DNA from: Planctomycetales bacterium
GTDB lineage: Bacteria; Planctomycetota; Phycisphaerae; SM23-33
Length of the DNA stretch: 53,407 nucleotides
Reading direction: 5' to 3'
Assembly (NCBI GenBank): GCA_030631085.1
Contig: DAOVLV010000001.1
Coordinates: forward strand, 1-53,407
In this document: positions 36,929 through 53,407 of the stretch, piece by piece
Position numbering within the stretch: position 1 is the stretch's first letter
Layout of the letters: every line of letters begins with the position of its first letter
Notes under the pieces: model-generated
Seen by the model: only the letters and a program-made list of their open reading frames with translations
Told to the model about the DNA's origin: nothing
The model's database searches: none
Position numbers and translations under genes: made by a program

Positions 36929-36935
36929 ATATATC

Positions 36936-37238: not shown

Positions 37239-37249
37239 GGAAGACACGG

Positions 37250-38065: not shown

Positions 38066-38761
38066 GAGTGTCGGCAATCCGCGAAAGGGCTTGATCCACG
38101 AAACGGGCTGTGTAGTCGGGATTGTAGTTGGCTGCTGGCCTTGCCATATTCCGGCCTTGCTCACCTTGGCCTTTTGCTCCACCTCCAAGTATTCCTCTAC
38201 GCGGCTAAACGGATATTTCGGATAGGCTCTAGCCAAGCCTTCACTTATCATCACCAGCCCAAAGTCCCGACCATCCGGTAATTCGATATAGACTAGCAAG
38301 CGTTTGTAAGTACCCCACTTCCCATGCTTCGGGTCCGGGTCGTATTGAATCTTGACGGTTTTGTCTTGTAGCAATTCTTTCGCACGGGCTGACGCTTCGG
38401 GGCCGAATGGCTGCACAGGCTTGAAGGGGTGAACCGTTTCCGGCGTATCAATACCTACGATGCGAACCTTGAGCGGGCCAGTGTCGGTGTCTATCTGGAT
38501 AGTGTCGCCATCCGTTACTGCAATGACTTTATGCAGACTGTTATCAGGCGGGGCAATTCGCTGCTTGACGCTGAGCGGTTGCTTTTGAAGTGGGGCCGGT
38601 TGCTCTTGGGGCTTTGGTGTGGGTTCTATATGCCGTGCTTGCTCAAGTTCCCGAACCCGCTCCGACAAAATGATTACACGGAAAGATGAAAACAGGACGC
38701 CCGCCGTGAGTAAGGACAAACACAATACCAAGGCTATATTCTTTCGCATAGGGCGGCTCAT
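37916..38761 (-). CDS. Membrane-anchored thermonuclease (SNase-like)
   Basis: N-terminal TM NIALVLCLSLLTAGVLFSSF. VTDGDTIQIDTD..VRIVGIDTPE..WGTYKRLLVYI. The 3' end overlaps the convergent gene by 150 nt. Confidence 0.8.
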   Translation of the reverse strand: MSRPMRKNIALVLCLSLLTAGVLFSSFRVIILSERVRELEQARHIEPTPKPQEQPAPLQKQPLSVKQRIAPPDNSLHKVIAVTDGDTIQIDTDTGPLKVRIVGIDTPETVHPFKPVQPFGPEASARAKELLQDKTVKIQYDPDPKHGKWGTYKRLLVYIELPDGRDFGLVMISEGLARAYPKYPFSRVEEYLEVEQKAKVSKAGIWQGQQPTTIPTTQPVSWIKPFRGLPTLSPGHDGNYYDNHKYDYGHYHTSHIPIGMFRQANSRGVLELKSARFRVEV

Positions 38762-39066
38762 CTAGGGGGATTGCAAACACTACACGGGCGGTAACGTTTC
38801 TTGGCTTCGCTCAGGGGCATCGGGATTTTCGACTTACTCAAATACCGACAGCCTGCACGATGATAGCACTTGCCACTCCGTGTAACATAGACAGTAATCT
38901 CTTGGGTTCCAGAATCCGAATTATCCTCTTGTTGATCGGTGCCTCTTACCGATGGCGTGTTGGACGATCCGCTCTGATCTTCGCTCCGTAATCCATAATA
39001 AAGACCGGCTCCGATCAGTGAAGCACAGACAACAGCGACGATTGGCCAAACGAGTTTGTTTTGCAT
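38758..39066 (-). CDS. Small membrane protein with C-terminal Cys/His 'sunset'-type metal-binding motif
   Basis: TM WPIVAVVCASLIGAGLYYGL. ..VYVTRSGKCYHRAGCRYL...YRPCSVCNP. Confidence 0.6.
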   Translation of the reverse strand: MQNKLVWPIVAVVCASLIGAGLYYGLRSEDQSGSSNTPSVRGTDQQEDNSDSGTQEITVYVTRSGKCYHRAGCRYLSKSKIPMPLSEAKKRYRPCSVCNPPR

Positions 39067-39205
39067 TATCTATCCCCTTTCCCCGACCAATATGCCGGTA
39101 GGGTCATTGTTGCACGTGAAACTGCCAAGGTCAAGAAATAGCACCTTGACCAAGGTGTTGCATCGAGGTAGCCTGCCGGGTGCGCAGATACAAAAGGGAA
39201 AGAAT

Positions 39206-39970
39206 GTGAGCACGAAAGACAAAAGCCTAATCATCGTTGTGCTGGTCTTGGTATGCGTGGCGGTCATAATTTGGGGCCATCACCGATTGGAATTGCTTCT
39301 CTTGGTGGCGTTCCTAGCACCTCTTACCGTCATTCACGTAGGCTCCATGGCTCTAGTGAGCACCTGTTGTTGGGGCATAGCCATCGAACGCCTATCTATC
39401 TTCTACGGAGGTCCGTTGTGCCGCTTTAACGTCAGAGGTATTCCCATCGAGATCGGTTACTTACCCATAGGCGGCTCAATAACATTCCGGCGTTACGACG
39501 ATGGTACAACCTCCAACGATGGCTTTAGGAACTATGACCACTTTCACCCATGGCAACGGTTGGTGATAATTCTGAGCGGGCCTTCGCTGCTTCTTCTTTT
39601 GGGCTGCGCGCTGATCGGGAGCAAGAGTCTTGTTGAAACCGTGCAAAGGTTCTACCCGACCTTCGTGGCGGGAACGATGTCTCCTGGTAGCGATGGCGTG
39701 AGCACATTAGCGGCTTACCTGAGTCTATTAGAGCATGGTAATTATCAGATTGCCTTCGGACTTCTTGCAGTTGTCCTAGCCGTGCTGAACCTATTGCCAC
39801 TCCCAACCATGAATGGGGGAGAGGCATTGATGGAACTCACTCAGATGTTGAACAGGCGTAGGTTCGCGCCTAAGATGGTCGTGGCATTGCGGGTTGTTTC
39901 GATAGTAATCCACTGTGTCATCGCAGCCGCATGGGCATTTTCGCTGATCCTCTTGCTGTTTTTCCATTGA
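39206..39970 (+). CDS. M50 (site-2 protease)-like membrane protein with degenerate active site
   Basis: RseP-like ..IERLSIFYGGPL..IGYLPIGGSITF.. and NLLPLPTMNGG. The HExxH position reads HVGSM and the LDG Asp is Asn. Start is the GTG at 39206 or the ATG at 39092. Confidence 0.55.
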   Translation: MSTKDKSLIIVVLVLVCVAVIIWGHHRLELLLLVAFLAPLTVIHVGSMALVSTCCWGIAIERLSIFYGGPLCRFNVRGIPIEIGYLPIGGSITFRRYDDGTTSNDGFRNYDHFHPWQRLVIILSGPSLLLLLGCALIGSKSLVETVQRFYPTFVAGTMSPGSDGVSTLAAYLSLLEHGNYQIAFGLLAVVLAVLNLLPLPTMNGGEALMELTQMLNRRRFAPKMVVALRVVSIVIHCVIAAAWAFSLILLLFFH

Positions 39971-40023
39971 CCGGCAGGACTTGTGATAGGCTCTGCCGGG
40001 TTTTTGTATTCATTCCCGAAGCC

Positions 40024-40551
40024 TTACACCTCTGTATATTGTGCAGTTCCCGCCATCGAGAAACCACGCAACGAAGAATCCGCAACTTTTTTAAATACCT
40101 CAGGCGGTACACTGACAGTGGCCACCCAGCAACCCGCCGATATTTTTTCGCCCCTATAAGTAATTTCCGAATCCGTTACAAAACTTTCGACCACTCGACA
40201 GGTAGTATCGTGTTCATGCTGGAGTTTAACAATTCCACCGTTCGCTAACCAACTGGCACTACCTTTTTTCAGTTCCTCGAAATCGGAAATATAGTCGTTC
40301 TGGGCGTCGGTGTTTTCCGGGTTGCCCAAACAATAAACGCAGCCCGATAATTCGTGCATCTCGCCATTTTTCCGTATGTCGAAGAATCCGCCGCCCGACT
40401 TCTCAAATTCTATTTCGTTATCATCGTCAATTTCTAAAACGATACCCGCATCGGCGAAGATATATTTCAAAACCTCGTTGGTCGTATTGCATCCCGGAAT
40501 ATCGACATATCCCTCTGCATCGCTGGTCAATTCTAAAGTTGTATTTGTCAT
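40024..40551 (-). CDS. XkdF-like (phage-associated, protease-like) protein
   Basis: C-terminal half ..LQHEHDTTCRVVESFVTD..AGCWVATVSVPPEVFKKV..LRGFSMAGTA resembles the XkdF family pattern. Confidence 0.45.
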   Translation of the reverse strand: MTNTTLELTSDAEGYVDIPGCNTTNEVLKYIFADAGIVLEIDDDNEIEFEKSGGGFFDIRKNGEMHELSGCVYCLGNPENTDAQNDYISDFEELKKGSASWLANGGIVKLQHEHDTTCRVVESFVTDSEITYRGEKISAGCWVATVSVPPEVFKKVADSSLRGFSMAGTAQYTEV

Positions 40552-40568
40552 AATTTATTTCCCCTAAT

Positions 40569-40724
40569 TTAATTCGCCGGATCGCCCCGGCCTGTCAATC
40601 GCTCAAACGTCTCGGATGCTTCTTCGCTATCCCAAGTTTTTATTTCCACGCCGGATCGAAACACTCGAAGCCGACAACAATCCCGGCGTAGTTCCAACTC
40701 ATTATTTTTTTGTATAGTCTTCAT
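40569..40724 (-). CDS. Possible small ORF (51 aa)
   Basis: Own translation: MKTIQKNNELELRRDCCRLRVFRSGVEIKTWDSEEASETFERLTGRGDPAN. Sits just upstream of the XkdF-like gene. Confidence 0.3.
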   Translation of the reverse strand: MKTIQKNNELELRRDCCRLRVFRSGVEIKTWDSEEASETFERLTGRGDPAN

Positions 40725-40733
40725 ATAATTATC

Positions 40734-40750
40734 TATACGAAATTCGTATA
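40734..40750. promoter_or_regulatory. 17-bp palindrome TATACGAAATTCGTATA in an AT-rich promoter region
   Basis: Self-complementary around the central base. 10 nt upstream of the small ORF start. Confidence 0.45.
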
Positions 40751-41008
40751 ATTGGTTTGTATATCTCTAACGCACTCAAACTTTCAACACGTATCAAAGT
40801 ACCTATATGCCTTAAAAGTTGCTTACAACGTATCCTGCAAAGCCCTGCACAGTGATATAAGGTAGTTCGCTAACCTGTTATATTCGGCATTTTGTCCGTC
40901 TGCTGGTATATTGACATTCTTGGTGTATTTCACCGCTTAAAAAAACAGGAGGCTCGGCATTTTCTGATTGCCAAGTCTCCTTTCAATTTTGATAATTTGT
41001 ATCTTGTC

Positions 41009-41620
41009 TTACTTGACCGCCTCAATAATTTTATGCACGGTAGGCCAACTCAATTCCTCTGCCCTTGCGATAGCGGCTTTGCTGATACCCTTGTCGTACA
41101 TATCCAGTATTCGGTTGATCCGTCTTGTACTCACCATTGACCAACCTTTTTGACTTCCACCCCATTTTTTGCCCGCTGCTTTGGCTACCTCGATACCGGC
41201 CTTTTGTCTTTGACGCCTTACGGCATTTTCAAACTCGGCGAACACTGCCAATATCCCGGCTATCATTTTGCCGCTGATGCTGTCAAGATCGACGCCCTCC
41301 GTTACCGATACCAGCCGGATACCCCTTTTGTGCATCCTGTCGAACAGGTTAGCGGCGTCTTTGAGGGAACGACTCAACCTATCCAGTCGCCAACAGATAA
41401 CGGCACTGACCTTGCCCTTGTCGATAGCCTGTTGTAGTTTTTTCCATTCTGGCCTGTTGTTAGTTGTGCCACTAGCCTTGTCGGAATACCACTTTAGGTT
41501 TTCTATCCCGCTGGCCTTCGCCCATGCCCTTATCGCCTTACGTTGCAGCCTGTCATTTTGCTCTACCGTGCTGCATCTCACGTAGGCTGCTGTAATGTTT
41601 CCCGTCTTTTCTTTCGCCAT
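41009..41620 (-). CDS. Small serine recombinase (resolvase/invertase) with C-terminal HTH
   Basis: AAYVRCSTVEQN (catalytic Ser), ..VICWRLDRLSRS.., ..FAEFENAVRRQRQKAGI.., C-terminus ..ISKAAIARAEELSWPTVHKI. AAGGAG RBS. Confidence 0.85.
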   Translation of the reverse strand: MAKEKTGNITAAYVRCSTVEQNDRLQRKAIRAWAKASGIENLKWYSDKASGTTNNRPEWKKLQQAIDKGKVSAVICWRLDRLSRSLKDAANLFDRMHKRGIRLVSVTEGVDLDSISGKMIAGILAVFAEFENAVRRQRQKAGIEVAKAAGKKWGGSQKGWSMVSTRRINRILDMYDKGISKAAIARAEELSWPTVHKIIEAVK

Positions 41621-41813
41621 GATATGCTCCTTTCGGTTGATAGCCTGTATCACAGCGTTTATTATAACCCTAAATTGTCTTGTGTAAAAGATATTTTATA
41701 GGTTTTGCATAAATTATCTTTCGTGTGCTCTATCATATTCCCTTGCAATAACGGCTTTTTGGCCTTTTTCCGCACGCCAGTTTCAAACGACATGACTTTT
41801 TAGGGTTTTGATT

Positions 41814-42767
41814 CTATCCGATCTGGCCTCCAAAACCTTTGTCCGGGTCTAAAGACTTCCAACAGGAATCGCCGCCAGACGCTATCACACCGCCAACGGA
41901 GGAAAATTCGTTCCTACGAATCGGAAGTGTGGTAGGTGTTATCATTACTTTTCGTAATCCGGCCTCTATCAAGTCAAGCCCGCATTTTGGACATTCATTC
42001 AAGTTCCCGGATACCTCGAAACCGCATCGACATTTTACAGGCTGGCCGATATTCGATAATGCGGACTCGGCGGAAGTGCTGGAAAAGGTAACAGCATCCC
42101 GCCTGTCGCCCGCTTCGTTTGGTATAGGTATCTGGTCATGCTCGGTAGGTTCGTCCTGTACGGCTAATCCTGCAACGTCCTCGGTGGTGTTTTGAGGTGG
42201 TCTAGGCACGTTGCTGATGATGTTGATAATTTTGTCGTCGCTTCCTTCACCTTTGCTTTCCGATAACCGCTCCAACTGACTTAATAATTGACTAATTGCC
42301 GCAATGGAATCGGGCTTGGCTTTGGCTGCCAGTCGTTTGATAGCCCGGCGGAGTTCCTGCTTTAATTCTGATAAAGATACCTCGGTTTGTTCATCGTCCC
42401 CGGCCCCTTCTGGCTCTTGTGATCTGTTGCCGCGTCCGGGTCCGCCGGGGTTATTTTTGCAGAATTTTCCATCCGGTCCATGTAAGGGATGTTTTTCTTC
42501 AATGTTTATAATATCTTCGTTAGGCGTGTCGGAATTATTAGGTGTCGAAAATGCTTTATCCCCCTCTTGTCTTTTTTTATCTTTACTACCTTCTACCTTT
42601 GAAGTTTCATCGTTTTCTTTGTCGTTTTTCCTACCGTCTTTTTCTACGTTTTTCCATTCACGTCTTTTTGATGTTCTAGGATGTTTCATATTGCTTTTTC
42701 CCCCATACATTCCCCGTCGGATGCCAGCATCGAAAGTTGTTTCTGGTTGCTGTTCTTTTCTTTCCAA
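41814..42767 (-). CDS. Charged hypothetical protein with C-terminal zinc ribbon
   Basis: CRCGFEVSGNLNECPKCG. Lys/Glu-rich N-terminal half. Confidence 0.5.
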   Translation of the reverse strand: MERKEQQPETTFDAGIRRGMYGGKSNMKHPRTSKRREWKNVEKDGRKNDKENDETSKVEGSKDKKRQEGDKAFSTPNNSDTPNEDIINIEEKHPLHGPDGKFCKNNPGGPGRGNRSQEPEGAGDDEQTEVSLSELKQELRRAIKRLAAKAKPDSIAAISQLLSQLERLSESKGEGSDDKIINIISNVPRPPQNTTEDVAGLAVQDEPTEHDQIPIPNEAGDRRDAVTFSSTSAESALSNIGQPVKCRCGFEVSGNLNECPKCGLDLIEAGLRKVMITPTTLPIRRNEFSSVGGVIASGGDSCWKSLDPDKGFGGQIG

Positions 42768-42937
42768 ACTTTAGGGCTGCTGTTGGCGTGTATCCCCGTA
42801 GTCGGTGGATCGCTCGCCCCTCACGTATCGCTTGGCGATCCAGTCTGGTCAAACCGTTTTGATCTTCCATTTTTGCTTCCCCCTGTTTCCCCATTTTTTC
42901 AGTTCATCAAAATTATAAAATATAAAAAGCAATAAAT

Positions 42938-43037
42938 AAGTGGGTAAGTGGTTCAAGTGGTTAGAAACGACTTTTTGCCTTAAGCGCGCTCTTAAGGGTA
43001 AAACCTGTTTTCAGTCAATTATGCCACTTACCCACTT
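42938..43037. repeat. Iteron-like AAGTGG hexamers (3 direct, 2 inverted) around the CTTAAG-CGCGC-TCTTAAG palindrome: candidate island origin
   Basis: AAGTGG at 42938, 42946 and 42955. CCACTT at 43024 and 43032. 14-bp arms AAGTGGGTAAGTGG/CCACTTACCCACTT. Confidence 0.45.
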
Positions 43038-45318
43038 ACTTTCCGGCGTGCCCCAACGGTTCATCGGTTATATGCGCCCATTCAGGCTTCAGTCCGATAC
43101 CCGCAAAGGCCATTCTTTGCTTTCCGCTAATAACTAACTGCTTGCTTGTAATGTTTTCGATCCGGCGTATCTGTTCGTACAAAACTTTCCGACTCATCGT
43201 GTATCTCTCGCCCGCCTCTTTCGCCCACCACAAATAAGCGTGGTACATATCCGGCTGGGCTATTTTTTTATCCTTGCCGGTTTCGCAATACATATCCAAA
43301 AATTCGGCAAGTTTGTTTTCTTCATCCTGATATTGCCTTGTCGCGTGCTTGACGGATTCCGGCGAAATTAACCCATACTGCTGCCACAATAAGCAACCCT
43401 CCACGGCCCACCTTAAAACGCCCGGCCATTCTTTTTTCAGTTTATCGAGCAGTTGATGATCCTGTTTTTCCAGTGCTACGGTAACGCCGAAGTCGATGAG
43501 CCTGATACGCCGCCAAATAGCATGGGATGATTCACTGATATTGGGCTTGTTGTTTGTAACCAAAACAGTTTTACAAATTCGCGGAAACTCAAAGTAGTCC
43601 CTGTGCATATACCGTCCCTTGAGAGTCGCGTCGCCGGTCAGTTCCTTTACCCGCTGCACTTTCATACGCCCGCCTTGCTCGGTTTCGGATGCCACGATAA
43701 GACGTTTTCCGAAAAGGTCGGCTATCTCGGTCGGGTGCTCATCAAACCTTTTCACAGTCAACAGGTGTGGTGGTGCTTTGCTTGCATAGTCGCCCATGTA
43801 GCCGAGAACCGTATCAAGGAACGTGCTCTTTCCGTTCGCCCCCGTCCCGTAAAAGATAGGTAGTATCTGCTCCGATATATCTCCAGTGAGAAAAATACCA
43901 GTTAGCCGCTGGAGGTAGTCTATCAACTCATCATCACCATCCATTATTTCGCCGATGAATTTTAGCCATAGCGAACTTTTTATATTGGGGTCATATTCGA
44001 CCGGGGCCAGTTTCGTGATAAAGTCAGTGGGCCTGTGTTTTCCAATTTCGCCCGTGCGTAGATCAACGGTTCCGTTCTGACAATTGAACAACCAAGTGTT
44101 TGCATCGAAAGACGCTGCGGGCGTTGCAAGTTCGCCTTTGGCTAACTCCATGAGTGCTTTAATCCGTCGCTCATTTTCAGAACTTGCTGCCCACTTTGCT
44201 GTTTTCTGTCGCTTGGTATCGTCGGGTTCATGCGCCGCGATGGTGTACCACGTCCGTACCGTCCGCTTGGCGAATTGCTGCACCTGTCGAATAGTATCTT
44301 TTTTCCACCGTGATCCGTCCCATATGAGCCACTTGCCCCATTGTTCACACCAAAGCACCTCGTCCCTGTACAATGCTGCGAAAAGTTCCGCGTTACCCGT
44401 GTCGGTCTGATTAAAACTGCTGTGATGTTCTGCCGGATACCGCTCCATCCCTTGAGCAATGGTTTCGATCTCACTGTCCGGTATGCTAGACGGGTCTTCG
44501 CACAGAGAGTTTTTTGAACCGAGTAAAACCTTACCAATGGTCTCCGTCTCCATACCCAGTTGCCCGCGCAAGAAACCCGCCAGCCGTGTAAGCCCGTCGT
44601 TGCGTTCGCCGACTGGTATTTTTTCATTCGTTCCGTCCGTTTCGGTTAGTGTTTCAACGTCTTGTTTTTTACTCTCAATTAATTTGGCAAGTAACCATTT
44701 TGGGGCTACCAAAACGTCTTGTGTATCTGGCGTACCGCGATACCAGTCGTAATGTCTGTTGCTTACGTGCAGGCTGTACGGCGCAACGACATAGCCGCCG
44801 TCGGCTTTCACGTCAACGCCCTTACCAAGAGCGTTTGCACGGCTCTTTACATTCCCGCCAGGATGCCGAAAGTAAAAGTGCGTTCCACCACTGCCCGTTA
44901 TTGACTGCAAGGTCTTTGGCAGTCGGCCATTGTTGTTTTCGATTTCGTCTAGTGTATCTTCACCACCATTACGCGGATCAATATCGAGCACCATAAGGCC
45001 GGATACTTTACCTGTCGCTATACCGATGTTTGCGTTGGGCCATTTTTCCCACCATTTTTTTATATCCCTCTGATCGGTGGTAGCGTCTTTCAGTCCGTGC
45101 ATAGTTCGCGGATGCTTGCCGGGGCTGTTGCAGCCACGTTTTCCACAAGCACATTTTCCGTCGTCTATCTCATAGATCGGAAGTACCTGCCAGCCTTGTT
45201 GTGCATATTCTAAAGCCACCTTAACTTTGCTTTGCCCTATTCGTTCTGCCCTGATTCTTTCAAATTCACTCTCAATAAAACCAAGTCGCCTCTGCTTTTT
45301 CTCACTTACATTTACCAT
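43036..45318 (-). CDS. Bifunctional primase-polymerase (PrimPol) / D5-P4-type helicase
   Basis: ..GWQVLPIYEI..CACGKRGCNSPGKHP.., ..LMVLDIDPRNGG.., Walker A GTGANGKSTF. 760 aa. Confidence 0.85.
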   Translation of the reverse strand: MVNVSEKKQRRLGFIESEFERIRAERIGQSKVKVALEYAQQGWQVLPIYEIDDGKCACGKRGCNSPGKHPRTMHGLKDATTDQRDIKKWWEKWPNANIGIATGKVSGLMVLDIDPRNGGEDTLDEIENNNGRLPKTLQSITGSGGTHFYFRHPGGNVKSRANALGKGVDVKADGGYVVAPYSLHVSNRHYDWYRGTPDTQDVLVAPKWLLAKLIESKKQDVETLTETDGTNEKIPVGERNDGLTRLAGFLRGQLGMETETIGKVLLGSKNSLCEDPSSIPDSEIETIAQGMERYPAEHHSSFNQTDTGNAELFAALYRDEVLWCEQWGKWLIWDGSRWKKDTIRQVQQFAKRTVRTWYTIAAHEPDDTKRQKTAKWAASSENERRIKALMELAKGELATPAASFDANTWLFNCQNGTVDLRTGEIGKHRPTDFITKLAPVEYDPNIKSSLWLKFIGEIMDGDDELIDYLQRLTGIFLTGDISEQILPIFYGTGANGKSTFLDTVLGYMGDYASKAPPHLLTVKRFDEHPTEIADLFGKRLIVASETEQGGRMKVQRVKELTGDATLKGRYMHRDYFEFPRICKTVLVTNNKPNISESSHAIWRRIRLIDFGVTVALEKQDHQLLDKLKKEWPGVLRWAVEGCLLWQQYGLISPESVKHATRQYQDEENKLAEFLDMYCETGKDKKIAQPDMYHAYLWWAKEAGERYTMSRKVLYEQIRRIENITSKQLVISGKQRMAFAGIGLKPEWAHITDEPLGHAGK

Positions 45319-45339
45319 TTTCTTTTCTCCACGAAAATT

Positions 45340-45393
45340 TTAGCCACGGGCGAAAGCCAAGCCGTGGAGTGCTCACTCCCGACCCGTGGCTAA
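45340..45393. promoter_or_regulatory. Nested hairpin between the 86-aa gene and the primase gene
   Basis: TTAGCCACGGG...CCCGTGGCTAA (11 bp) enclosing GGAGTG-CT-CACTCC. TTTTCTCCACG direct repeat on both sides. Confidence 0.45.
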
Positions 45394-45456
45394 TACTGAC
45401 TGTTGCTATTTTTCTCCACGTCATTTTGTTCATCAATTTATTATATTGAGTTGCTC

Positions 45457-45717
45457 TTAATTTTTTGAAAATTGATATGCCGAAAAATGCTGTCGTAACC
45501 TCTCGATAAGCAATTCCACCGGCAATTTTAATCGCCGTGCCACCACTGCCAATTTCTTACCTCTCATAATTAAATTGCAGGCCGCTTGATATTTCTTCGA
45601 CAGGCTTTGCATATCCATTTCAAAATGTAAATCATTGGAAAAGTCTGGTGTGTCCTTCTGATAAAGAATTCGACAGGTCGGCTGTTCATCATTTTTATTC
45701 ATTTTGTAATTCCCCAT
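45457..45717 (-). CDS. Hypothetical protein (86 aa)
   Basis: ORF track entry. Confidence 0.45.
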   Translation of the reverse strand: MGNYKMNKNDEQPTCRILYQKDTPDFSNDLHFEMDMQSLSKKYQAACNLIMRGKKLAVVARRLKLPVELLIERLRQHFSAYQFSKN

Positions 45718-45807
45718 TTTGGTTTGGCAGAGCAGAGCGGGGACGGTCAGAAACCCAGAAGAAAAGGAAAGAACCGCCCCCGCCTACAGGAGAAGCACTC
45801 ACGAAGA

Positions 45808-46239
45808 TTAATAACTAGACGTACTCGACCACTTCGGGTCGGAGCCGTGTGCAATTAAGACCGCCGTTATTTTGGAATCACCTTCGCCGTCGTACTCGAT
45901 ATTGATGAATCGCTTTGTGCCGATCACCAAGAAAACGTAAAGTCCATCCGCCGTTATCGAGAACGTATCATCCGAGACTGTTACCTCCGACGCGCTCATG
46001 CCGATGTTTTGTATAAGTTGGCATCGGTTCGACGAACTGGCCGAAAAGCCTGTCTCGTGGCTTGAATGCAAAGAGACATTACTGACGCCGGTCGTTCCCT
46101 TATCGACGGACAAAACCAATGTTGCATCGCCGTCATTTTGAATTGAATCAAATTCCGTTCCGCTAATGTCCGAAGAATTTGCTGCTGTAACGTTGTTCAA
46201 CAAAATCGCCGGGTTGTTTCCTGCTAAAATTTCTCTCAT
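45808..46239 (-). CDS. Hypothetical beta-rich protein (143 aa)
   Basis: ORF track entry. Confidence 0.5.
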   Translation of the reverse strand: MREILAGNNPAILLNNVTAANSSDISGTEFDSIQNDGDATLVLSVDKGTTGVSNVSLHSSHETGFSASSSNRCQLIQNIGMSASEVTVSDDTFSITADGLYVFLVIGTKRFINIEYDGEGDSKITAVLIAHGSDPKWSSTSSY

Positions 46240-46292
46240 TTTTTCATTCCTTAAAAAATTCCTAAACTACATTAATTCCTAAAATTAAATTC

Positions 46293-46517
46293 CTAAATAC
46301 TTACTTTCCGAAATAGAGGTCTAGCCCCCGACGCTTTTGCTCTCTCGCTATCTGGCCCAAAAATGTCATACTCCTTTTGTGTAACCCGGAAAGGCGGGTC
46401 GGCTTCTAGGCTTGGCCCAGCACCGTGGAAACTTTCACCAGTTCGCTTGCACTTCCAATAGCACATCGGCTCCATAGCCACCAAAATTCCGCCATCAACT
46501 TCCAATTCTTTTCCCAT
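46293..46517 (-). CDS. Hypothetical protein (74 aa)
   Basis: ORF track entry. Confidence 0.45.
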   Translation of the reverse strand: MGKELEVDGGILVAMEPMCYWKCKRTGESFHGAGPSLEADPPFRVTQKEYDIFGPDSERAKASGARPLFRKVSI

Positions 46518-46528
46518 TTTTTACTCTC

Positions 46529-47494
46529 CTAAATTGAGGGCATCGCCCAATAAATTTCCTGTGGTTTCACCCCGCACGATTCGTCGGCGGAAGTGTAAAA
46601 ACTTTGTAGTGATTCTCTTAAAGCCTTTTTTGTGTTAAGTAGTTCGGCATCGTCAAACCGACGGTCGTCGAGGTTTGATAAGACCTCTTGTATCTGCCGG
46701 ACTTTCCCCCAGAGCGACTTGCCTTTGGCAGTATTTCGGAATGACTTGACCGCCTCTCGATGCTCTGAAATATATTGCTCTCGCTCCTTGGCGGCCTTGT
46801 CCTTTTCCGTCTTGACTTGTTCGCGTTGCTCGGATGTTGATTCGTAGTTAAAGGTGTCCCGGACGGAATCAACAAAGGTCTCGATTTGCACTTTTGTAAT
46901 AAGCCCCCGAATGCCCGCCGGGTCGTAGGCGTGATCGGAACGAACTGTCAGCCCTGCCCGATTCAGTTCCTTGATTTCGGTTTGGTAGTTCTTGTAGAGT
47001 TCAAAAGTTTTGCTCAATTCCTTGCCCATCGCTTCCGCAGCATCGACGGCTTTTTCAAAATGCTTTTGCTGACGATTTCCGAGTTTCTTTAGTTTGCCCG
47101 CACGGTCGTACAAGGTACAAAGCCGTTCGACGATTTCTGGTAAGGCTTCGACAAACGCCTCTGACTGCCACTGAAGGATTTCTAATTCGTTTTTACGCTC
47201 GACAATTTCGTCCAATTGTGGCGGGCGTACTGGCCGACCTCGCGGGCTGCCGCCGTCCCGTATTCGGTCGTAGGTGTGATGCAGGACATGCTCTTTGGCC
47301 TCCGCACGTTTAGATTTCTCAAAGTCGGGGAAGGTCTTTATGCCGTCGGTGTACTTATACCACTGCCGACATCCTGGGCGAATCTTGTCGGGGTGGTTCT
47401 TTACAAACTGCCGCAAGGCATCCCCGGCCTTCCGCTGGTCGAGCAATTCGTCGATGAGTTTTTCGGGTGGTACTGTAAATTGTTTTTCTGTCAT
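46529..47494 (-). CDS. Hypothetical helical protein (321 aa)
   Basis: ORF track entry. First gene of the leftward island operon. Confidence 0.55.
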   Translation of the reverse strand: MTEKQFTVPPEKLIDELLDQRKAGDALRQFVKNHPDKIRPGCRQWYKYTDGIKTFPDFEKSKRAEAKEHVLHHTYDRIRDGGSPRGRPVRPPQLDEIVERKNELEILQWQSEAFVEALPEIVERLCTLYDRAGKLKKLGNRQQKHFEKAVDAAEAMGKELSKTFELYKNYQTEIKELNRAGLTVRSDHAYDPAGIRGLITKVQIETFVDSVRDTFNYESTSEQREQVKTEKDKAAKEREQYISEHREAVKSFRNTAKGKSLWGKVRQIQEVLSNLDDRRFDDAELLNTKKALRESLQSFYTSADESCGVKPQEIYWAMPSI

Positions 47495-47826
47495 TTTTCT
47501 ATATCTCCATCTTAAAAAGAAAAGGCGAAACCATCGGCCTTCTGGCCAACAGGTCCGCCTTCTTTGTCGAGCAAATTCCGTTTGGGAATTTCTGACCCAG
47601 CAAGGTCTAATTTTTTAAAAGAAGGGTTGAATTACCCGCCCTTCTTAAAGGATTATATAGTTTTCGTCAGAAAAACTTGTTAATTTTTTACACGATTTCG
47701 ACGATATTGAGCAAGTTTTACTACCAATAACCGCGTTTCGCCCTTTGTTTATATGGCTTTTCTCGACGCATAAATAAATTTTATTTTTATCTTTGTTTTC
47801 GATGATTTGGCACTATAATTGCTAAT

Positions 47827-47921
47827 GCGATGAATATACGATACTCCCAAAATGGCTTTGCCCTTCGGTTCGGCGAATCACTTCCTATGGTTGTGTATTC
47901 ATCGCAACCGGGCCGAAGGGC
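47827..47921. promoter_or_regulatory. Interleaved inverted repeats (A-B-A'-B') upstream of the recombinase gene
   Basis: A GCGATGAATA 47827-36 / A' TATTCATCGC 47896-905. B GCCCTTCGG 47860-68 / B' CCGAAGGGC 47913-21. Confidence 0.4.
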
Positions 47922-47999
47922 TTCAATTTCTACGCTGTACTATCACGAGTATTAATAAGTTTTTTCGCCGCCACCGGTATAATAACTAGGAGTAAAGCG

Positions 48000-50003
48000 A
48001 TGATCAAAACGCAGAAATTAAACAAGACCAGTTGCCTTACCGCTTGGTTGCTGACACGAGTCAGTTCCGAAGGTCAAGAGGAGGGCGAAGGCCCAGACGC
48101 CCAACTCCATAGCATCACACTGTCCGCTGAACGAGAAGGGTACACACCAAAGAATTGTAAGGTGGTGCAGGAAACAATTAGCGGATTCACCGAAAGAATC
48201 GAAGACCGTCCTTTATTGTCGAAAGCGTTAGATAGTGCAAAGGCCGGCGACTGTTTCTTTTGGGACAAGTCTGACCGTATGGCCCGCGACCGTATGGCGA
48301 AGGAAAGCATCATTCGCTTGATGCAACGTAAGGGACTGCGGTGTTTCGTGGGGGGGCTAGAGTTCGTCCTGTCGGATGAAACGCAAGTAGCCTTCCTATG
48401 TATGCAAGGAATCTTCGACCACCTCGCCGGAAGACAGTTAGTCGCCCGCATGGTGGACGGCAAAGCATCGCGTCGCCGTAAGGGGTTCATAATTGATTCG
48501 CAGGCCTCTTACGGTTTTGACTACATTAAAAATGAAGACCCGGCCTTGCGGACATTCCTCATTAACAAACAGGAAGCCAACGTGCTCCGCGAAATCATAT
48601 CTCGCGTTATCGACCTTAATCAGTCGATGAATCAAATAGCCAACTGGCTGAATGACAGTAGCATCCCGCCGAAGTCAGCCAAGCGGTGGAGTTCTGCAAG
48701 TCTGTGCTATATTTTGCGAAACCCCATCTTGACCGGCAAGGTAATGTCTGGACGCAACCGATACGAAAAAGACTCGGAAACTGGAAAGACAAAACGTATA
48801 ACGACACCACGTAGCGAATGGAAAGTTTTCAAGGAACTGCCTGACAGAATTATTGATGAAGATACATTCAACAGACTGCAACAAATTCTTGACTCTCGGA
48901 TACCGGCTCATCGACGTAAAGATAAAAAACCATCGGGGACTATGCAAAGCCGGAACGTCAAGGAGAATGACCAACGGATATTGAGGGACTTGTTATTTTG
49001 TAATTCGTGTGCCCGCTATGAAGGTGGAACCATACGCAGGTCAAAGATGGTTCCGGCACAAGGAGCCAGCCCCAAAGATGCTTTTTATGCTTGCTACTGG
49101 CGGCGAACTTCCGACAACAAGCGTAAAATGGCAGATAGGGAAAAATGCCGAATGCCATACATCCCGGCTAGTGAGGTTGAAGGGCTGGCAATGGAATACG
49201 TCAAGCGGATATTCCTTGACCCGAAATCAGTTTTGGAAAGCCTATTGACCGACAAGTCAATACAAGGTGAACTCATAGCGGCTGAAAAGCAACTAGCGTC
49301 CACCGAATCCAAACTTCACAAAACCAACCGTCGAATCGAAAAGACCCTTGACCAGATGCTCGACACGGAATCGGAACAGCGGAAACGCTCTCTTGATGAA
49401 AGCCTTGCTCGATATGAAAAAGAACGGGACGACTTGGAGGCCTACAAGTCCGGTCAGATGCGGGATGTTGAACGGTTACACCAGATGGTAGGGCGGGCCG
49501 ATCTGTTGAAAGATGCTGCTGACGACCTTGCAGGTATCAGGGCGGTGGCTGAAAAGGTGATAGACGAATTGAACACGGAACAGAAAAAACGATTGTTGAG
49601 AATAATTGCAAACCGAGCACAGTTTGCCATATCATTCCTTAAAGGCCGGGCAGGATATGTACTTGATGAATCCGTTGCCGCCGGTAAGTACGAAAGCAGG
49701 ATCGAGGCCGATGCCGATGGAGAGAATCCGATTGTCAATACCTACAAAGAAATCGGCAAAGCCCATTTTTCATTCCGCCCAAAGTCGCACGTACCAAAAT
49801 TCAGCGGCTGGCGGCTTGACCTTGCAGGAAATATCAAACCGTCGGAAATCATTGAAGGGCTGGCCCAGTTTGCCCGCGAAATTAGACCAAAGGTTTTCGC
49901 AAAGTACGCGAAAGACCAAGAGAAACATCCTCACAAGTCATATAAGAGTTACAAAACTGGCCCCGTCGATATTACCGCCCCTGACGCCGGACGAATCGCT
50001 TGA
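48000..50003 (+). CDS. Large serine recombinase (integrase of the island)
   Basis: ..LLTRVSSEGQ.. catalytic Ser, recombinase domain, Cys cluster CNSCARYEGG..YACYW, long coiled coil. TATAAT 47978-83 and AGGAG RBS. The last 12 codons lie in comM DNA. Confidence 0.9.
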   Translation: MIKTQKLNKTSCLTAWLLTRVSSEGQEEGEGPDAQLHSITLSAEREGYTPKNCKVVQETISGFTERIEDRPLLSKALDSAKAGDCFFWDKSDRMARDRMAKESIIRLMQRKGLRCFVGGLEFVLSDETQVAFLCMQGIFDHLAGRQLVARMVDGKASRRRKGFIIDSQASYGFDYIKNEDPALRTFLINKQEANVLREIISRVIDLNQSMNQIANWLNDSSIPPKSAKRWSSASLCYILRNPILTGKVMSGRNRYEKDSETGKTKRITTPRSEWKVFKELPDRIIDEDTFNRLQQILDSRIPAHRRKDKKPSGTMQSRNVKENDQRILRDLLFCNSCARYEGGTIRRSKMVPAQGASPKDAFYACYWRRTSDNKRKMADREKCRMPYIPASEVEGLAMEYVKRIFLDPKSVLESLLTDKSIQGELIAAEKQLASTESKLHKTNRRIEKTLDQMLDTESEQRKRSLDESLARYEKERDDLEAYKSGQMRDVERLHQMVGRADLLKDAADDLAGIRAVAEKVIDELNTEQKKRLLRIIANRAQFAISFLKGRAGYVLDESVAAGKYESRIEADADGENPIVNTYKEIGKAHFSFRPKSHVPKFSGWRLDLAGNIKPSEIIEGLAQFAREIRPKVFAKYAKDQEKHPHKSYKSYKTGPVDITAPDAGRIA

Positions 50004-50856
50004 GACGACACGGATTTATTCCGCACGCGGGTTGCTCGCGCCGGCCCAATCGCTGATGGCGATCAGGCCGGTGCGCACGCCGCACCATTCGACTTCGTCG
50101 GCTGCGCTGGTCGGCGGCGGCATCATCCCCCAGCCGGGGGAAATCTCGCTCGCGCACCACGGCGTGCTGTTCCTCGACGAACTGCCGGAATTCACGCGCG
50201 CCACGCTGGAGATGATCCGCCAGCCGCTGGAAGACCGATGGGTAACGATTCCGCGCGTTCATTCGACGCTGAAATTCCCAGCCGCGATTATGCTGGTCGC
50301 GGCGATGAACCCGTGTCCGTGTGGATATTTCACTGATCCGAAGCGGCAATGCAAGTGTTCGCCGGTGGTGATTGAGCGGTATTTATCGCGGATTTCCGGG
50401 CCTTTGATTGACAGGATTGACATTCACATCGAGGTCCCGCCGGTGCCTTGGCGACAACTCCGAGGCGACACCGACGGCCTGTCCAGCGCGGACATGCGTG
50501 AGCAAGTCCTAGCCGCCCGCCAGGTTCAGCGCAACCGTTTTTCTGTTTCTTCTTCCCAAGTCCCTAGTCCCACTCGTCAGGGCGGAGCCTGCCGTAGCCC
50601 GGAGTCCCTAGTCCCTTCATCCACTACGACAAATGCCACCATGTCGAGCAAGCAGGTCCGCCAATTCTGCAAACTCGACTCTGCCGGCGAGACGTTGCTC
50701 AAACAGGCAATGACCGAACTAGGCCTCTCAGCCCGCGCGCACGACAAGGTCCTACGCATCGCCCGCACCATTGCCGATATCGAAGGTGAAGAAAACATCC
50801 AATCGCATCATTTGGCAGAAGCGATACAATATCGAAAACTGGACAGAAGATTGTAG
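49966..50856 (+). pseudogene. comM: comM/yifB C-terminal part
   Basis: SILPPLTPDESLETTRIYS.., Walker B HHGVLFLDELPEF, ..PCPCGY..CKC.., ..LSARAHDKVLRIARTIADIEG..HLAEAIQYR. Confidence 0.85.
50557..50617. repeat. Heptamer-flanked GC-core element inserted in frame in comM
   Basis: caagtccctagtccc-actcgtcagggcggagcctgccgtagcccg-gagtccctagtccc. Encodes SQVPSPTRQGGACRSPESLVPS. Confidence 0.7.
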
Positions 50857-50881
50857 CGCAGAAACATAATTAGGATTAGGC

Positions 50882-52258
50882 ATGTCTAAAAATAAGGACG
50901 TTCGCAACGATCTGAAAGCGTATTTTCAGAAGATAGAAACATTATCTGTCCCCCATGAAACCCAATGGGTTAGTATTCGTCCCTGCCCACCGCTGTTCCC
51001 CAAATCGACTCAAGGTTTGATTGTAATCAAATACTCGGGCGAGAAACTTTTAATCCTCGGATGGTTCGGTCATCCATCATCCTGTTTGCTTCAATTTCCT
51101 CGAACATTCACCGCGTTGAAAGGAAAACTGGAAAATGGAGTAAGTGTTTCCTTGGAGCCATCCTATTCTATAGACTCCAAATTATATTGTGATAAGAACC
51201 CTCACCTTCAACTGTTTGCCTTTAGGCTTAGGAAACTAATCGTGGGCTCTCCTAGAAAGCTAGCTTCTCAAGCAACCTTTCGACTTGTCAACTTTGACTT
51301 AGAAATCGGGAATATCAGGAAGACAAAGACTGGTTACAGGAACTATCCACCGCTCTTGCGGTTCAAGCATGTGAATACCACATTTGTCGTCCGCGGAACG
51401 TCGAAGCCCAACCGTGATCCCCATGCTCCAGAATCTCAATATCATCTCTCGTCAAAATTGACTATAACTGCCAAAAGACCCCGGCCTTGGAAGGAACTTC
51501 AAGATGAGGGGTGGAAGATAACCAACCTGTTATCTTTGGCTTCTGCTAACCGTGTCGGGTATCTGGATATTGAATTTAGACCTGTGGGGATGGCAAAACC
51601 TTGGTCTATTGCTTATGACAGGTCTGTACCTCCCAATAAATCACGGCATGGTACAGTAACCTTTGGTACTGTATGCTTCTCCCTGACACGTATGTACCTG
51701 CCACGACTTCTGAAATGTGGAATTAAAAATATTGAAAACGCTCATTCAAACTACGGGTTTTTTCTTGCACTTCGACATTGGATCAACGCTCAGCATAGCA
51801 CAATCATACAAGAGAAATTGACCTCGTTATTCCAAGGATTTGAGACGTGTATGTCAGTTTTTAGAGCATCTGGGAATAAGATACCTTTGACGAGAAACGA
51901 GGCGGAAGAAAAGGCTTACCAATGGCTTATGAGCATTATGAAAGAAAAGTCTCCAAACAAACGCATTCGTATCACCTTAGAGCAATTGTTTAAAAGACCA
52001 CCCAGAGCCAAAACGGAAACACTACCGACACTCCTTGACTCATTGGGGTTGAAGGCGGATTTAGGATTCTGGGTGCGCAGAACGGACATGTTTCATCGTG
52101 GCGATATTAATAGGGACATTGGATTATCTGCTGTTGCCCAACACATGAAAGAAGCGGACGATCTCCTTGCCAGAATTCTATTGAGGAGCGTGGGCTATTC
52201 TGGAAAATATTTCCGCCTTGACACCGATGGATGGCCATGCGAAGGAAAGATACCTTAA
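50882..52258 (+). CDS. Rx4H-motif protein, HEPN/ApeA-like candidate (458 aa)
   Basis: C-terminal helical region with FWVRRTDMFHRGD (R-x4-H). AT-rich. Starts 25 nt after the comM stop. Confidence 0.4.
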   Translation: MSKNKDVRNDLKAYFQKIETLSVPHETQWVSIRPCPPLFPKSTQGLIVIKYSGEKLLILGWFGHPSSCLLQFPRTFTALKGKLENGVSVSLEPSYSIDSKLYCDKNPHLQLFAFRLRKLIVGSPRKLASQATFRLVNFDLEIGNIRKTKTGYRNYPPLLRFKHVNTTFVVRGTSKPNRDPHAPESQYHLSSKLTITAKRPRPWKELQDEGWKITNLLSLASANRVGYLDIEFRPVGMAKPWSIAYDRSVPPNKSRHGTVTFGTVCFSLTRMYLPRLLKCGIKNIENAHSNYGFFLALRHWINAQHSTIIQEKLTSLFQGFETCMSVFRASGNKIPLTRNEAEEKAYQWLMSIMKEKSPNKRIRITLEQLFKRPPRAKTETLPTLLDSLGLKADLGFWVRRTDMFHRGDINRDIGLSAVAQHMKEADDLLARILLRSVGYSGKYFRLDTDGWPCEGKIP

Positions 52259-52362
52259 CCTAAAGGCTGATGGCATGGTCGCGGTGTTTGTGACCACGTT
52301 TGTGTTCACCGGGGTCACAGCATCCGGCAAATCCAACCCGCCGAGTATAAAGGAAAAAGAAT

Positions 52363-52956
52363 ATGCTAGAGAATGAATTACACAGGGAAGAGAATATGAA
52401 ATTGCAGCTTATTAAAGATGCTCATACGTATTTGGAAGGGCGTATCAAGTTTGTTGATACTAAGGCAAGCTTTTTTATGGCAGTCCTGGGTGGTTTCTTT
52501 GCGATCATCGCTCTTTCGGCAAAAGAAATGTTATTATCAGTAGGTGCGAAAAGTGTGTCACCGACGATTGAGATTGGGTTTTACCTCCTGATGATCGTAA
52601 CCTTTCTTTTGGTGATCATAACGGTATGCTGTTTATTACAAACTATCCGACCCACAAGAAAATTTCTGCATATGACAATGGAGGTAAAACACACATCTGG
52701 CAAAGCACAGCATGTTATGTGGCCAAGTAAAGAAGGAGGTTGGCCCCAAGATCCAACGGATTTCGAAAAAAGAATTCAATCGCTTGATACGAATGGAATA
52801 TTAGCAAACTATGAGGAAACACTTTATGTGAGTCTTCAACTGATAAGGAATGTCTACAATCGTTATCGCGTTGCTGCTTTATTAATGAAATTTACCGTTG
52901 TGGTGAGCGGATCTCTTTTCTTCGCACTTCTTATTCTAAAACTGATAGGCGTCTAA
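52363..52956 (+). CDS. DUF5706/PycTM-like multi-TM protein
   Basis: ..LEGRIKFVDTKASFFMAVLGGFFAIIAL.., second TM IGFYLLMIVTFLLVIITVCCLL, C-terminal TM VVVSGSLFFALLILKLIGV. Confidence 0.5.
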   Translation: MLENELHREENMKLQLIKDAHTYLEGRIKFVDTKASFFMAVLGGFFAIIALSAKEMLLSVGAKSVSPTIEIGFYLLMIVTFLLVIITVCCLLQTIRPTRKFLHMTMEVKHTSGKAQHVMWPSKEGGWPQDPTDFEKRIQSLDTNGILANYEETLYVSLQLIRNVYNRYRVAALLMKFTVVVSGSLFFALLILKLIGV

Positions 52957-53074
52957 CCAAGTAGGGCGGGGCAACTCGTGCTACGTAGTAAACTATGTCG
53001 CAGAGTAGCATCGGCCCGCGGAACAAAATCGGAAACAATACAATTTTGTCATGGAAACCTAGGAGAAACAAATT

Positions 53075-53407
53075 ATGAAATGTCCGGCGTGTGGTAGAGA
53101 GTTGGTGGAAATGGTGGCTGGGAGTGTTACTGTTGATGTGTGCAAGGGCGGGTGCGGGGGCGTTTGGTTCGATAACTTCGAGTTGCAGAAGGTCGATAAT
53201 CAGAGCGAATCGGCCGGCGAGGCCCTGCTGGATGTCGAACGGGACGAAAACGTCCGCGTGGACCACGAGGCCCGCAAGAAATGCCCGAAGTGCGACGACC
53301 TTGTAATGATGCGGCATTTCTCCGGCGTCAAGAAGGAAGTCGAGGTCGATGAATGCCCCGGCTGTGGGGGCTTCTGGCTTGACTTCGGCGAGTTGGCGCA
53401 GATTCGC
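53075..53407 (+). CDS. TFIIB-type zinc-ribbon (zf-TFIIB) protein, two repeats, 3' end cut by window
   Basis: Own translation: MKCPACGRELVEM..VDVCKGGCGGVWFDNFEL...CPKCDDLVMM..VDECPGCGGFWLDFGELAQI. AGGAGA RBS. High GC. Confidence 0.7.
   Translation, partial: MKCPACGRELVEMVAGSVTVDVCKGGCGGVWFDNFELQKVDNQSESAGEALLDVERDENVRVDHEARKKCPKCDDLVMMRHFSGVKKEVEVDECPGCGGFWLDFGELAQIR

Follow-up and report, generated by a model that had tools for sequence, protein, structure and literature searches.

Downstream of comM in a Planctomycetales bacterium, an AT-rich islet carries two genes, one for a protein with a HEPN-type motif and one for a protein resembling the PycTM membrane effectors. Do the two work together as one defence system, or do they merely stand side by side? 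With about even confidence, we lean towards two defence-type genes that are stacked and act independently, rather than towards a coupled HEPN-3TM system. The stretch analysed, here called the window, is 53,407 nt of the forward strand of contig DAOVLV010000001.1 (assembly GCA_030631085.1).

Borders, composition and origin of the islet

The islet spans 50857-53074 (~2.1 kb) and holds two ORFs on the same strand, ORF1 (458 aa) and ORF2 (197 aa). Its GC content is 0.431, versus 0.595 in the adjoining part of comM and 0.583 in the zinc-ribbon gene on the other side. GC3 is 0.43 in ORF1 and 0.38 in ORF2, versus 0.68 and 0.73 in the flanking genes. An AT-richer block with two same-strand ORFs between the comM stop and the zinc-ribbon gene had been proposed in the initial annotation, and its coordinates and lengths proved exact (GC 0.43 versus 0.58-0.60).

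That the islet follows comM is correct in part, as the Mg_chelatase domains end at 50856, but only the 3′ part of the gene is found there. A serine-recombinase element of 13.7 kb interrupts comM, whose 5′ part lies at 35562-36263. When an approximate E. coli ComM sequence was used as tblastn query, residues 221-495 matched the 3′ part and residues 3-230 matched 35562-36263. Only 25 bases separate the comM stop from the first codon of ORF1, too few to hold a separate promoter, and no promoter-like site was found there. On the right, the islet is closed off by a zinc-ribbon gene of high GC and host type. No direct repeats flanking the islet were found, and phage genes and a mobile element lie near it on the contig. 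By its composition the islet is foreign, probably horizontally acquired DNA.

The idea that the comM flank is a hotspot for such genes was not borne out as a general one. In a synteny check, none of 80 comM loci had a homologue of ORF1, ORF2 or the zinc-ribbon gene, and a downstream GC drop of the islet's size was seen at only 2 of 65 comM loci in other bacteria.

Table 1 Features of the islet and its flanks (window positions)
Feature	Position	Strand	Remarks
comM 3′ part (Mg-chelatase-like AAA+ competence gene)	49915..50856	+	Left border of the islet; Mg_chelatase E 9.5e-68, Mg_chelatase_C E 4.4e-31
Spacer, comM stop to ORF1 start, 25 bases	50857..50881	+	AGGA ~9 bases 5′ of ATG
ORF1, 458 aa, divergent ApeA-like HEPN protein, predicted abortive-infection RNase	50882..52258	+	
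ORF1 N-terminal half, residues 1-270, beta-rich, putative sensor/regulatory domain resembling ApeA_NTD1	50882..51691	+	AlphaFold2 strands and a Pfam score below cut-off
ORF1 C-terminal helical domain, residues ~273-440, predicted HEPN Apea-like type	51698..52201	+	AlphaFold2 helices 273-436 and hhalign
Codons R400-T-D-M-F-H405, predicted catalytic Rx4H motif	52079..52096	+	R400 and H405 invariant in alignment A2
Spacer, ORF1 to ORF2, 104 bases	52259..52362	+	Terminator-like hairpin 52276-52296; AAGGA ribosome-binding site before ORF2
ORF2, 197 aa, predicted PycTM / pJV1-SpdB3-family three-transmembrane protein, no cyclase partner	52363..52956	+	PADLOC and PF18967
ORF2 hydrophobic segment 1, residues 33-60	52459..52542	+	Kyte-Doolittle scan
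ORF2 hydrophobic segment 2, residues 64-98	52552..52656	+	Kyte-Doolittle scan
ORF2 hydrophobic segment 3, residues 169-197	52867..52953	+	Kyte-Doolittle scan
Zinc-ribbon gene, high-GC, partial (off the contig end)	53075..53407	+	Right border of the islet; Zn_ribbon_TFIIB E 3e-22, two copies

ORF1 and the ApeA-type HEPN proteins

ApeA is a single-protein HEPN tRNase anti-phage system, in which a doughnut oligomer, activated by ligand, cuts tRNAs in their anticodon loops and infection is aborted (bioRxiv 10.64898/2026.01.26.701840). Remote homology places ORF1 among the Apea-like HEPN proteins, though it passes no curated threshold. Its N-terminal half alone matches the Pfam profile ApeA_NTD1 (PF18862) at residues 184-239 with 24.7 bits (E 1.9e-5; 23.0 bits with the whole protein), the curated cut-off being 25.5 bits, and for the homologue P0002 a match of 18.4 bits falls on the same part of the profile. 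The HEPN_Apea profile (PF18739) has no match in ORF1, P0002 or P0004. The link of ORF1 to HEPN_Apea is transitive only, because it goes by hhalign from the close family of ORF1 to the P0007/P0006/P0008 group (probability 98%, E 2.3e-13, 209 columns), in which P0007 scores above the HEPN_Apea cut-off (28.4 versus 24.4 bits). HEPN_Apea is also the best or joint-best match for P0008, P0010, P0006 and an Ensifer plasmid HEPN protein.

The predicted catalytic motif lies in the stretch FWVRRTDMFHRGD (residues 396-408). R400 and H405, as well as E321, are invariant in alignment A2 of five homologues with 17-42% identity, and the Ensifer protein has the same motif context, RNEIVHRGEI. Homologues do not share a second Rx4-6H site of ORF1; the bare Rx4-6H pattern is not significant, because overlapping matches occur at two ORF1 sites. 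With the invariant R400x4H405 in a region that is helical in the model, the sub-threshold ApeA_NTD1 score and the hhalign result, both the HEPN/ApeA-like assignment, as remote homology, and the Rx4H motif in a helical C-terminal region hold as first proposed.

Structure and defence libraries added less. The AlphaFold2 model of ORF1 (pLDDT 68, pTM 0.57) places strands between residues 26 and 245 and helices at 273-436. The suggested check by structure and profile gave the above link with hhalign, but Foldseek with this pLDDT 68 model returned no HEPN/ApeA or other match in PDB and BFVD at E <= 0.001. Sequence searches against PDB chains brought no meaningful match and did not hit the ApeA cryo-EM chains. 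The suggested PADLOC check found ORF1 unmatched at E <= 1, despite ApeA being in the library; P0002, P0006, P0007 and P0008 were unmatched at E <= 10, and the one match for P0004 was a weak one to Avs1b (E 0.063). NCBIfam and PHROGs yielded nothing useful.

ORF1 resembles ApeA in being one protein in the range of ~450-600 aa with a non-catalytic N-terminal region and a predicted C-terminal HEPN domain with Rx4H, in its remote but consistent similarity to the HEPN_Apea and ApeA_NTD1 profiles, and in having homologues that are solitary or in defence-type neighbourhoods. It differs in falling below both curated cut-offs with no PADLOC model, and in being shorter (458 aa versus at least 583 residues in Ec2ApeA). 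In the model its N-terminal half is rich in beta strands, whereas ApeA proteins with cryo-EM structures are described as mainly helical, carrying a catenin-like N-terminal domain and a PafA-like Mid domain (bioRxiv 10.64898/2026.01.26.701840); ApeA-NTD1 has been described as beta-rich (Anantharaman 2013).

The ORF1 family is very small, with six representatives among 1.84 billion clusters in a full HMMER search. A word-indexed search of 5.8 billion proteins returned ORF1 itself and P0002 only, and a search with a five-sequence profile added P0008 alone. Nothing was found when alignments of the family were searched against genome, metagenome and viral contigs, or by tblastn against plasmids with ORF1 and P0006 as queries. 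Around relatives of ORF1 lie NERD, TIR-like, DUF262 and patatin genes, the usual company of defence genes.

ORF2 and the PycTM family

PycTM and PucTM have been described as 3TM effectors (bioRxiv 10.64898/2026.08.12.744502). By remote homology, ORF2 is a member of the PycTM / pJV1-SpdB3 3TM family (PF18967), in agreement with its initial annotation as DUF5706/PycTM-like. In the PADLOC check proposed there, three PycTM models match, namely PDLC02364 (E 2.5e-9, residues 10-180), PDLC02365 (E 1.7e-7) and PDLC02363 (E 2.2e-7). PF18967 is listed for ORF2 in a precomputed table, but hmmscan against a Pfam copy did not return it, even with sub-sequences, so that the two sources conflict. The F/V-D-T-K-A signature followed by a transmembrane helix and two more was found as claimed: FVDTKA occupies residues 30-35, running straight into segment 1, and a soluble loop (residues 99-168) precedes the third segment. 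A small protein in which an N-terminal helix is joined by three hydrophobic segments and this loop, ORF2 fits the description of EcPucTM.

On the other hand, ORF2 differs from PycTM and PucTM in being very divergent, unmatched in NCBIfam as well as in the Pfam copy. Among 5.8 billion proteins it has no close homologue, matching only itself, and nothing was found in viral and metagenome scans or by tblastn against plasmids. Its model is all-helical with low confidence, and Foldseek with this low-confidence model gave no PDB match at E <= 0.001. ORF2 also differs in its partner, a HEPN protein rather than a cyclase. The 51 ORFs of the 53-kb contig yielded 24 Pfam families, none of them a cyclase domain, in accord with the earlier claim that no cyclase is present, which is shown for this contig only. 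The neighbours of ORF2 are comM, ORF1 and the zinc-ribbon gene, with no class III nucleotide cyclase (PycC/PucC) adjacent.

ORF2 could be a cyclic-nucleotide-gated effector of Pycsar or Pucsar type whose cyclase acts in trans or has been lost, with ORF1 as an unrelated neighbour. The matches to three PycTM models agree with this, several cyclases are reported in some Pycsar loci, and the contig stops 450 bases past the islet, leaving only 53 kb of the genome visible. However, the described Pycsar and Pucsar effectors adjoin their cyclase, the islet closes at a host-type gene, and ORF2 is highly divergent, with no close relative among 5.8 billion proteins. We consider it quite unlikely.

Both genes could instead be non-defence debris of a mobile element, either a HEPN-type toxin gene with an SpdB3-like membrane protein or genes in decay. 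The PycTM family takes its name from SpdB3, the plasmid-spread protein of pJV1, and proteins like SpdB3 serve actinomycete plasmids in spreading, so its members exist outside defence loci. In addition, neither protein passes a curated threshold in the libraries run, and a mobile element and phage genes are close by. Yet neither ORF is broken or truncated when set against its homologues or profile, the predicted catalytic R and H of ORF1 persist at identities of 17-42%, and the relatives of ORF1 keep company with defence-type genes. Debris seems very unlikely.

Pairing of the two genes and its meaning

The shared strand, the similar low GC and a spacer of only 104 bases with no detected promoter would be compatible with co-acquisition and co-transcription of ORF1 and ORF2, and hence with coupling. 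No sigma-70-like promoter was found in the spacer, and there was no Rfam match. The number of sites like its terminator-like hairpin is not above chance, and the spacer fold is not significant (z -1.3).

We conceived of coupling as a two-gene, cyclase-free system in which the ApeA-like protein would sense infection and switch on the 3TM pore, so that RNA and membrane would both be hit. The switch could be a product of a metal-independent HEPN RNase (2′,3′-cyclic-phosphate nucleotides or short RNAs) or direct contact. Such a system would suit the spacer, in which no promoter-like site was found and ORF2 has its own ribosome-binding site, the similar foreign GC of the two genes, and the gene order, which is kept in the metagenome contig L090. 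It would also suit that PycTM-type proteins are otherwise signal-gated effectors, the usual signal generator being missing here, and that ApeA itself is gated by small nucleotide ligands.

The neighbourhoods of ORF1 homologues, from which co-occurrence was judged, speak against it. Adjacency of ORF1 and ORF2 is found in this population only, as L090 is 99.8% identical to the window. P0004 and P0002 are the two nearest homologues with readable context and the only two informative loci. P0004 stands alone between truA and an aminotransferase fragment (GC 0.56 versus 0.67-0.69 in the flanks), and P0002 is a solitary, low-GC gene followed by 300 gene-free bases; neither adjoins a PycTM-like or membrane-protein gene, and the proposed co-occurrence of the two families was not seen at these two loci. 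ApeA works alone. P0004 and P0002 are solitary, and ORF1 has a same-strand neighbour 104 bases away. HEPN-PycTM coupling is not described in the literature found by full-text search. Taken together, we regard the coupled system as unlikely; its fuller form, a new cyclase-free module with the HEPN protein as both sensor and signal source and with RNA-cleavage products or contact gating a PycTM-family pore, is very improbable.

A small-TM partner conserved among Apea-like HEPN proteins was also considered. The remote homologue P0008 has a gene for a 73-aa tail-anchored protein upstream, but P0007, 72% identical to P0008, lacks it, and the candidate was rejected. An immune gene of phage-inducible chromosomal islands (PICIs), HEPN-TM, is comparable as far as a review describes it, in that HEPN and a membrane element occur in a mobile-DNA context; in the window they are separate genes, with a TM part of the PycTM family (PMC12948488).

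Because the nearest ORF1 homologues with readable context are solitary and the pair is confined to one population, stacking is favoured over coupling. The initial annotation had left the choice between an unreported pairing and two stacked genes; the latter is preferred, and the pairing recurs only in the nearly identical contig.

As two stacked genes, the islet may work as follows. We infer a defence role for both proteins. ORF1 would act on its own as an ApeA-type RNase of abortive infection, with a beta-rich N-terminal half that would sense an infection cue and release the C-terminal HEPN domain. This domain would dimerise, forming from R400 and H405 a composite active site that cuts RNA. 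By analogy with ApeA, the predicted targets are tRNA anticodon loops, whose cleavage would halt growth in the infected cell. For ORF2 the analogy is with PycTM and the EcPucTM hexamer: it would form an inner-membrane assembly that damages membrane integrity upon activation.

The evidence against independently acting defence-type genes includes the mediocre ORF1 model, the tiny homologue sample and the mostly helical nature of the characterised ApeA proteins, whose N-terminal region is of another kind.

As it stands, the islet is a modest extension of known families, with no new principle and no proven new two-gene system. Were the two genes coupled, which is not the favoured reading, it would be a new wiring of a Pycsar effector, with an RNase in place of the cyclase. 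If ORF1 is active, the idea of ApeA-type HEPN tRNases extends to a very rare, divergent branch with a beta-rich N-terminal domain. Such a branch would be missed by current defence finders and would offer a new sensor domain in Planctomycetota, a phylum in which phage defence has been little studied. ORF2 would represent a PycTM-family pore minus its cyclase, and with it comes the question how orphan effectors of this kind are gated.

Composition and borders of the islet

The two-ORF block that the initial annotation described between comM and a zinc-ribbon gene was borne out, with both ORFs as described. Islet GC is 0.431, compared with 0.595 in the comM part and 0.583 in the zinc-ribbon gene, and third-position GC is 0.43 in ORF1 and 0.38 in ORF2, where the genes on either side have 0.68 and 0.73. 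A GC drop of at least 0.15 in the 2.1 kb after comM was found at only two of 65 comM loci of other bacteria. Because of this contrast and this rarity, the islet is a real compositional anomaly, and its DNA was most likely acquired. Flanking direct repeats, which would mark arrival, were not found.

Features of the islet and the split comM gene
Feature	Position	Strand	Description
comM, 5′ part	35562-36263		
Large serine recombinase gene	48000-50003		667 aa
comM, 3′ part (left border)	about 49915-50856		stop at 50856; Mg_chelatase E 9.5e-68 and Mg_chelatase_C E 4.4e-31 (Pfam)
Islet	50857-53074		
ORF1	50882-52258	+	458 aa
ORF2	52363-52956	+	197 aa
Zinc-ribbon gene (right border)	start 53075		runs off contig; two Zn_ribbon_TFIIB units

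The gene adjoining the islet is comM by sequence, as first annotated, but only the 3′ part of a split gene. The insert between the two parts (~13.7 kb, GC 0.48) ends in the recombinase gene, whose final codons extend into comM-derived sequence in a different frame. It looks like a small integrative element targeting comM (region 35544-50856), and the islet lies beyond the comM stop, outside the insert. Seen from the insert, the 3′ part of comM was placed at 49915-50844. That the islet is debris of a mobile element with no role in defence is improbable, the least probable of our readings.

Phage-type Pfam families were detected in window 1-35500, without assignment to individual ORFs: a lambda-family portal, a capsid, a terminase gpA nuclease and a cement protein, together with Prim-Pol/D5 primase, a tyrosine integrase and more than one DNA methylase. 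A prophage distinct from the comM insert may lie left of comM, and some of the families could be inside the insert.

The proposal of a comM-flank hotspot was not supported as a general feature, as relatives of the islet genes were found at 0 of 80 comM loci and large post-comM GC drops are uncommon. Drops of 0.18-0.22 directly after comM, larger than the window's, were seen in the 2 kb downstream at L086 and L079, loci of Algoriphagus boritolerans and a Mucilaginibacter MAG. The closest ComM relatives come from Planctomycetales MAGs (64% identity) and the window also encodes a DUF1580 protein, so the host is probably a planctomycete, one for which the genome collection has no close representative species.

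ORF1 and the ApeA-type proteins

ORF1, which has no hydrophobic segment, has ApeA_NTD1 as its sole Pfam match, at 23.0 bits (E 6.6e-5, residues 184-239) with the whole protein and 24.7 bits with the N-terminal half by itself. No curated Pfam cut-off is reached by ORF1, those of ApeA_NTD1 and HEPN_Apea being 25.5 and 24.4 bits. P0002, a homologue 40% identical to ORF1, scores 18.4 bits for ApeA_NTD1 at the same profile positions. For ORF1, the PADLOC and Foldseek checks that the initial annotation called for came back empty: PADLOC models gave no meaningful match to ORF1 or its relatives, and neither Foldseek with the ORF1 model (pLDDT 68) against PDB and BFVD nor sequence searches of PDB chains matched ORF1.

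The family is extremely rare. In a word-indexed search, 5.8 billion proteins yielded nothing beyond ORF1 itself and P0002, and with full HMMER over 1.84 billion cluster representatives the hits numbered six, namely ORF1, P0002, P0004 (about 34-35% identical to ORF1), the 91-aa fragment P0005, and the remote P0006 (E 8e-8) and P0007 (E 5e-4). P0007 passes the HEPN_Apea cut-off (28.4 bits), and for P0006, the remote Apea-like HEPN protein P0008, and P0010, HEPN_Apea is the best or joint-best match, below cut-off. When an alignment of the close family was compared with one of the P0007/P0006/P0008 group, the profiles matched at 98% probability (E 2.3e-13, 209 columns), the aligned columns spanning the entire C-terminal half of the ORF1 family, motif included. 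tblastn with P0007 led to an Ensifer adhaerens plasmid protein annotated 'HEPN domain-containing protein' (HEPN_Apea 21.4 bits), where the motif context is VRNEIVHRGEI...GYSGRY versus RRTDMFHRGDI...GYSGKY in ORF1. This P0007-group relative (WP_252161567.1, 405 aa) is encoded on conjugative plasmid pC (NZ_CP098810.1, L091 568-5645), where a DUF262 gene and a gene for a patatin-like phospholipase precede it, and the locus may be another defence cluster.

R400, H405 and E321 are invariant in a five-sequence alignment, in which ORF1's other Rx4-6H site, R298...H305, is unconserved. The AlphaFold2 model from this alignment (pLDDT 68, pTM 0.57) has strands within residues 26-245 and helices within 273-436, a layout agreeing with the published picture (PMC3710099) of ApeA-NTD1 as a mainly beta-stranded domain joined to the Apea HEPN domain. 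Judged by profile and model, ORF1 is a putative divergent relative of the ApeA_NTD1 plus HEPN_Apea architecture, itself below every curated cut-off; the initial HEPN/ApeA-like reading is upheld, as remote homology, by the invariant Rx4H and the profile link, but not by any curated match.

Studied ApeA proteins combine a catenin-like N-terminal domain and a PafA-like Mid domain with a split HEPN, and they assemble into doughnut-shaped decamers or dodecamers. They cleave tRNA in the anticodon loop and respond to small activating ligands, e.g. 5′-phosphorylated deoxydinucleotides (bioRxiv 10.64898/2026.01.26.701840). They are larger than ORF1 and described as predominantly helical. ORF1 is set apart from this experimentally defined group, with no membership assigned; by analogy, it may work like them.

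ORF2 and the missing cyclase

The PycTM-like reading of ORF2 was supported by three separate PADLOC models for PycTM (E 2.5e-9 for residues 10-180, 1.7e-7 and 2.2e-7) and three hydrophobic segments (residues 33-60, 64-98 and 169-197). FVDTKA closes the N-terminal helix, and some 70 residues ahead of the third segment form a soluble loop. The protein collection's precomputed table lists PF18967 (PycTM) for ORF2 with no weakness mark; hmmscan against the Pfam copy gave no PF18967 match with ORF2 whole or as three sub-sequences, even at E <= 10, and NCBIfam and PHROGs gave nothing significant. No search route retrieved a homologue, the search of 5.8 billion proteins giving only ORF2 itself.

PycTM/PucTM are three-transmembrane proteins of the pJV1-SpdB3 family beside a class III cyclase; cCMP/cUMP or cGMP activates them, and their action is to damage the membrane, EcPucTM being a hexamer with TM2 lining a channel (PMC11224242; bioRxiv 10.64898/2026.08.12.744502). 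ORF2 fits this family in topology and profile but is very divergent. The adjacent cyclase that defines Pycsar is absent: the immediate neighbours are comM, ORF1 and the zinc-ribbon gene, and, as first annotated, no cyclase domain occurs among 24 Pfam families (E <= 1e-5) in 51 ORFs of the 53-kb contig, the only part of the genome visible. A distant cyclase serving ORF2, or a degraded Pycsar locus of which it is a remnant, is a doubtful explanation.

Possible linkage of the two genes

The ORF1-ORF2 pair recurs solely on an independent metagenome contig, L090 (ENA ERZ23498665), which, being 99.8% identical to the window, represents the same population. L090 1-2656 aligns with window 50466-53121 with five differences, all in ORF1 and three of them protein-changing (T78A, F357S, S364I), versus none in the comM tail, ORF2 and spacers, counts too small to infer selection.

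A coupled HEPN-3TM module is unlikely, if somewhat less so than a distant or lost cyclase. The two genes share strand and a similar foreign composition, lie 104 bases apart, and have no detected sigma-70-like promoter in the spacer; the terminator-like hairpin directly 3′ of the ORF1 stop does not differ significantly from chance, Rfam had no match in the locus, and co-transcription is possible. Against coupling, the pair is known from one population and the two closest ORF1 homologues are solitary. The P0004 gene (L009 1660-3006, 15.9-kb contig) stands alone, with truA on one side and an aminotransferase fragment on the other, and, with GC of 0.56 versus 0.67-0.69 in its flanks, is a single-gene low-GC islet. 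The P0002 gene (L001 278-1633, 1.9-kb contig; GC 0.56 versus 0.62-0.64) has no ORF within 300 bases downstream. Both are low-GC genes in high-GC genomes. The family appears to travel one gene at a time, and ORF1-side homologues give no evolutionary signal of linkage. Among the remote homologues, the low-GC (0.33) P0008 locus (L002 184-3693; also L003-L007) looks like a defence-island setting: a gene for a tail-anchored membrane protein of 73 aa lies 24 bases upstream, a conserved 100-aa gene follows downstream, and a NERD-domain gene and a weak TIR-like gene are also neighbours. The 73-aa gene is absent from the 73 bases available upstream of P0007, which is 72% identical to P0008.

Between the two alternatives first offered, stacked stand-alone genes are favoured over coupling. 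With about even confidence, we prefer to read the region as a small islet of acquired DNA that stacks two divergent genes of defence type. ORF1 would be an ApeA-like HEPN RNase working on its own and presumably aborting infection by cutting RNA with R400/H405, and ORF2 an orphan PycTM-family membrane protein. The HEPN-PycTM pairing is without report in the literature searched, yet conservation lends it no support. Both islet genes are new, very divergent variants of known families, and ORF1 escapes current detection models.
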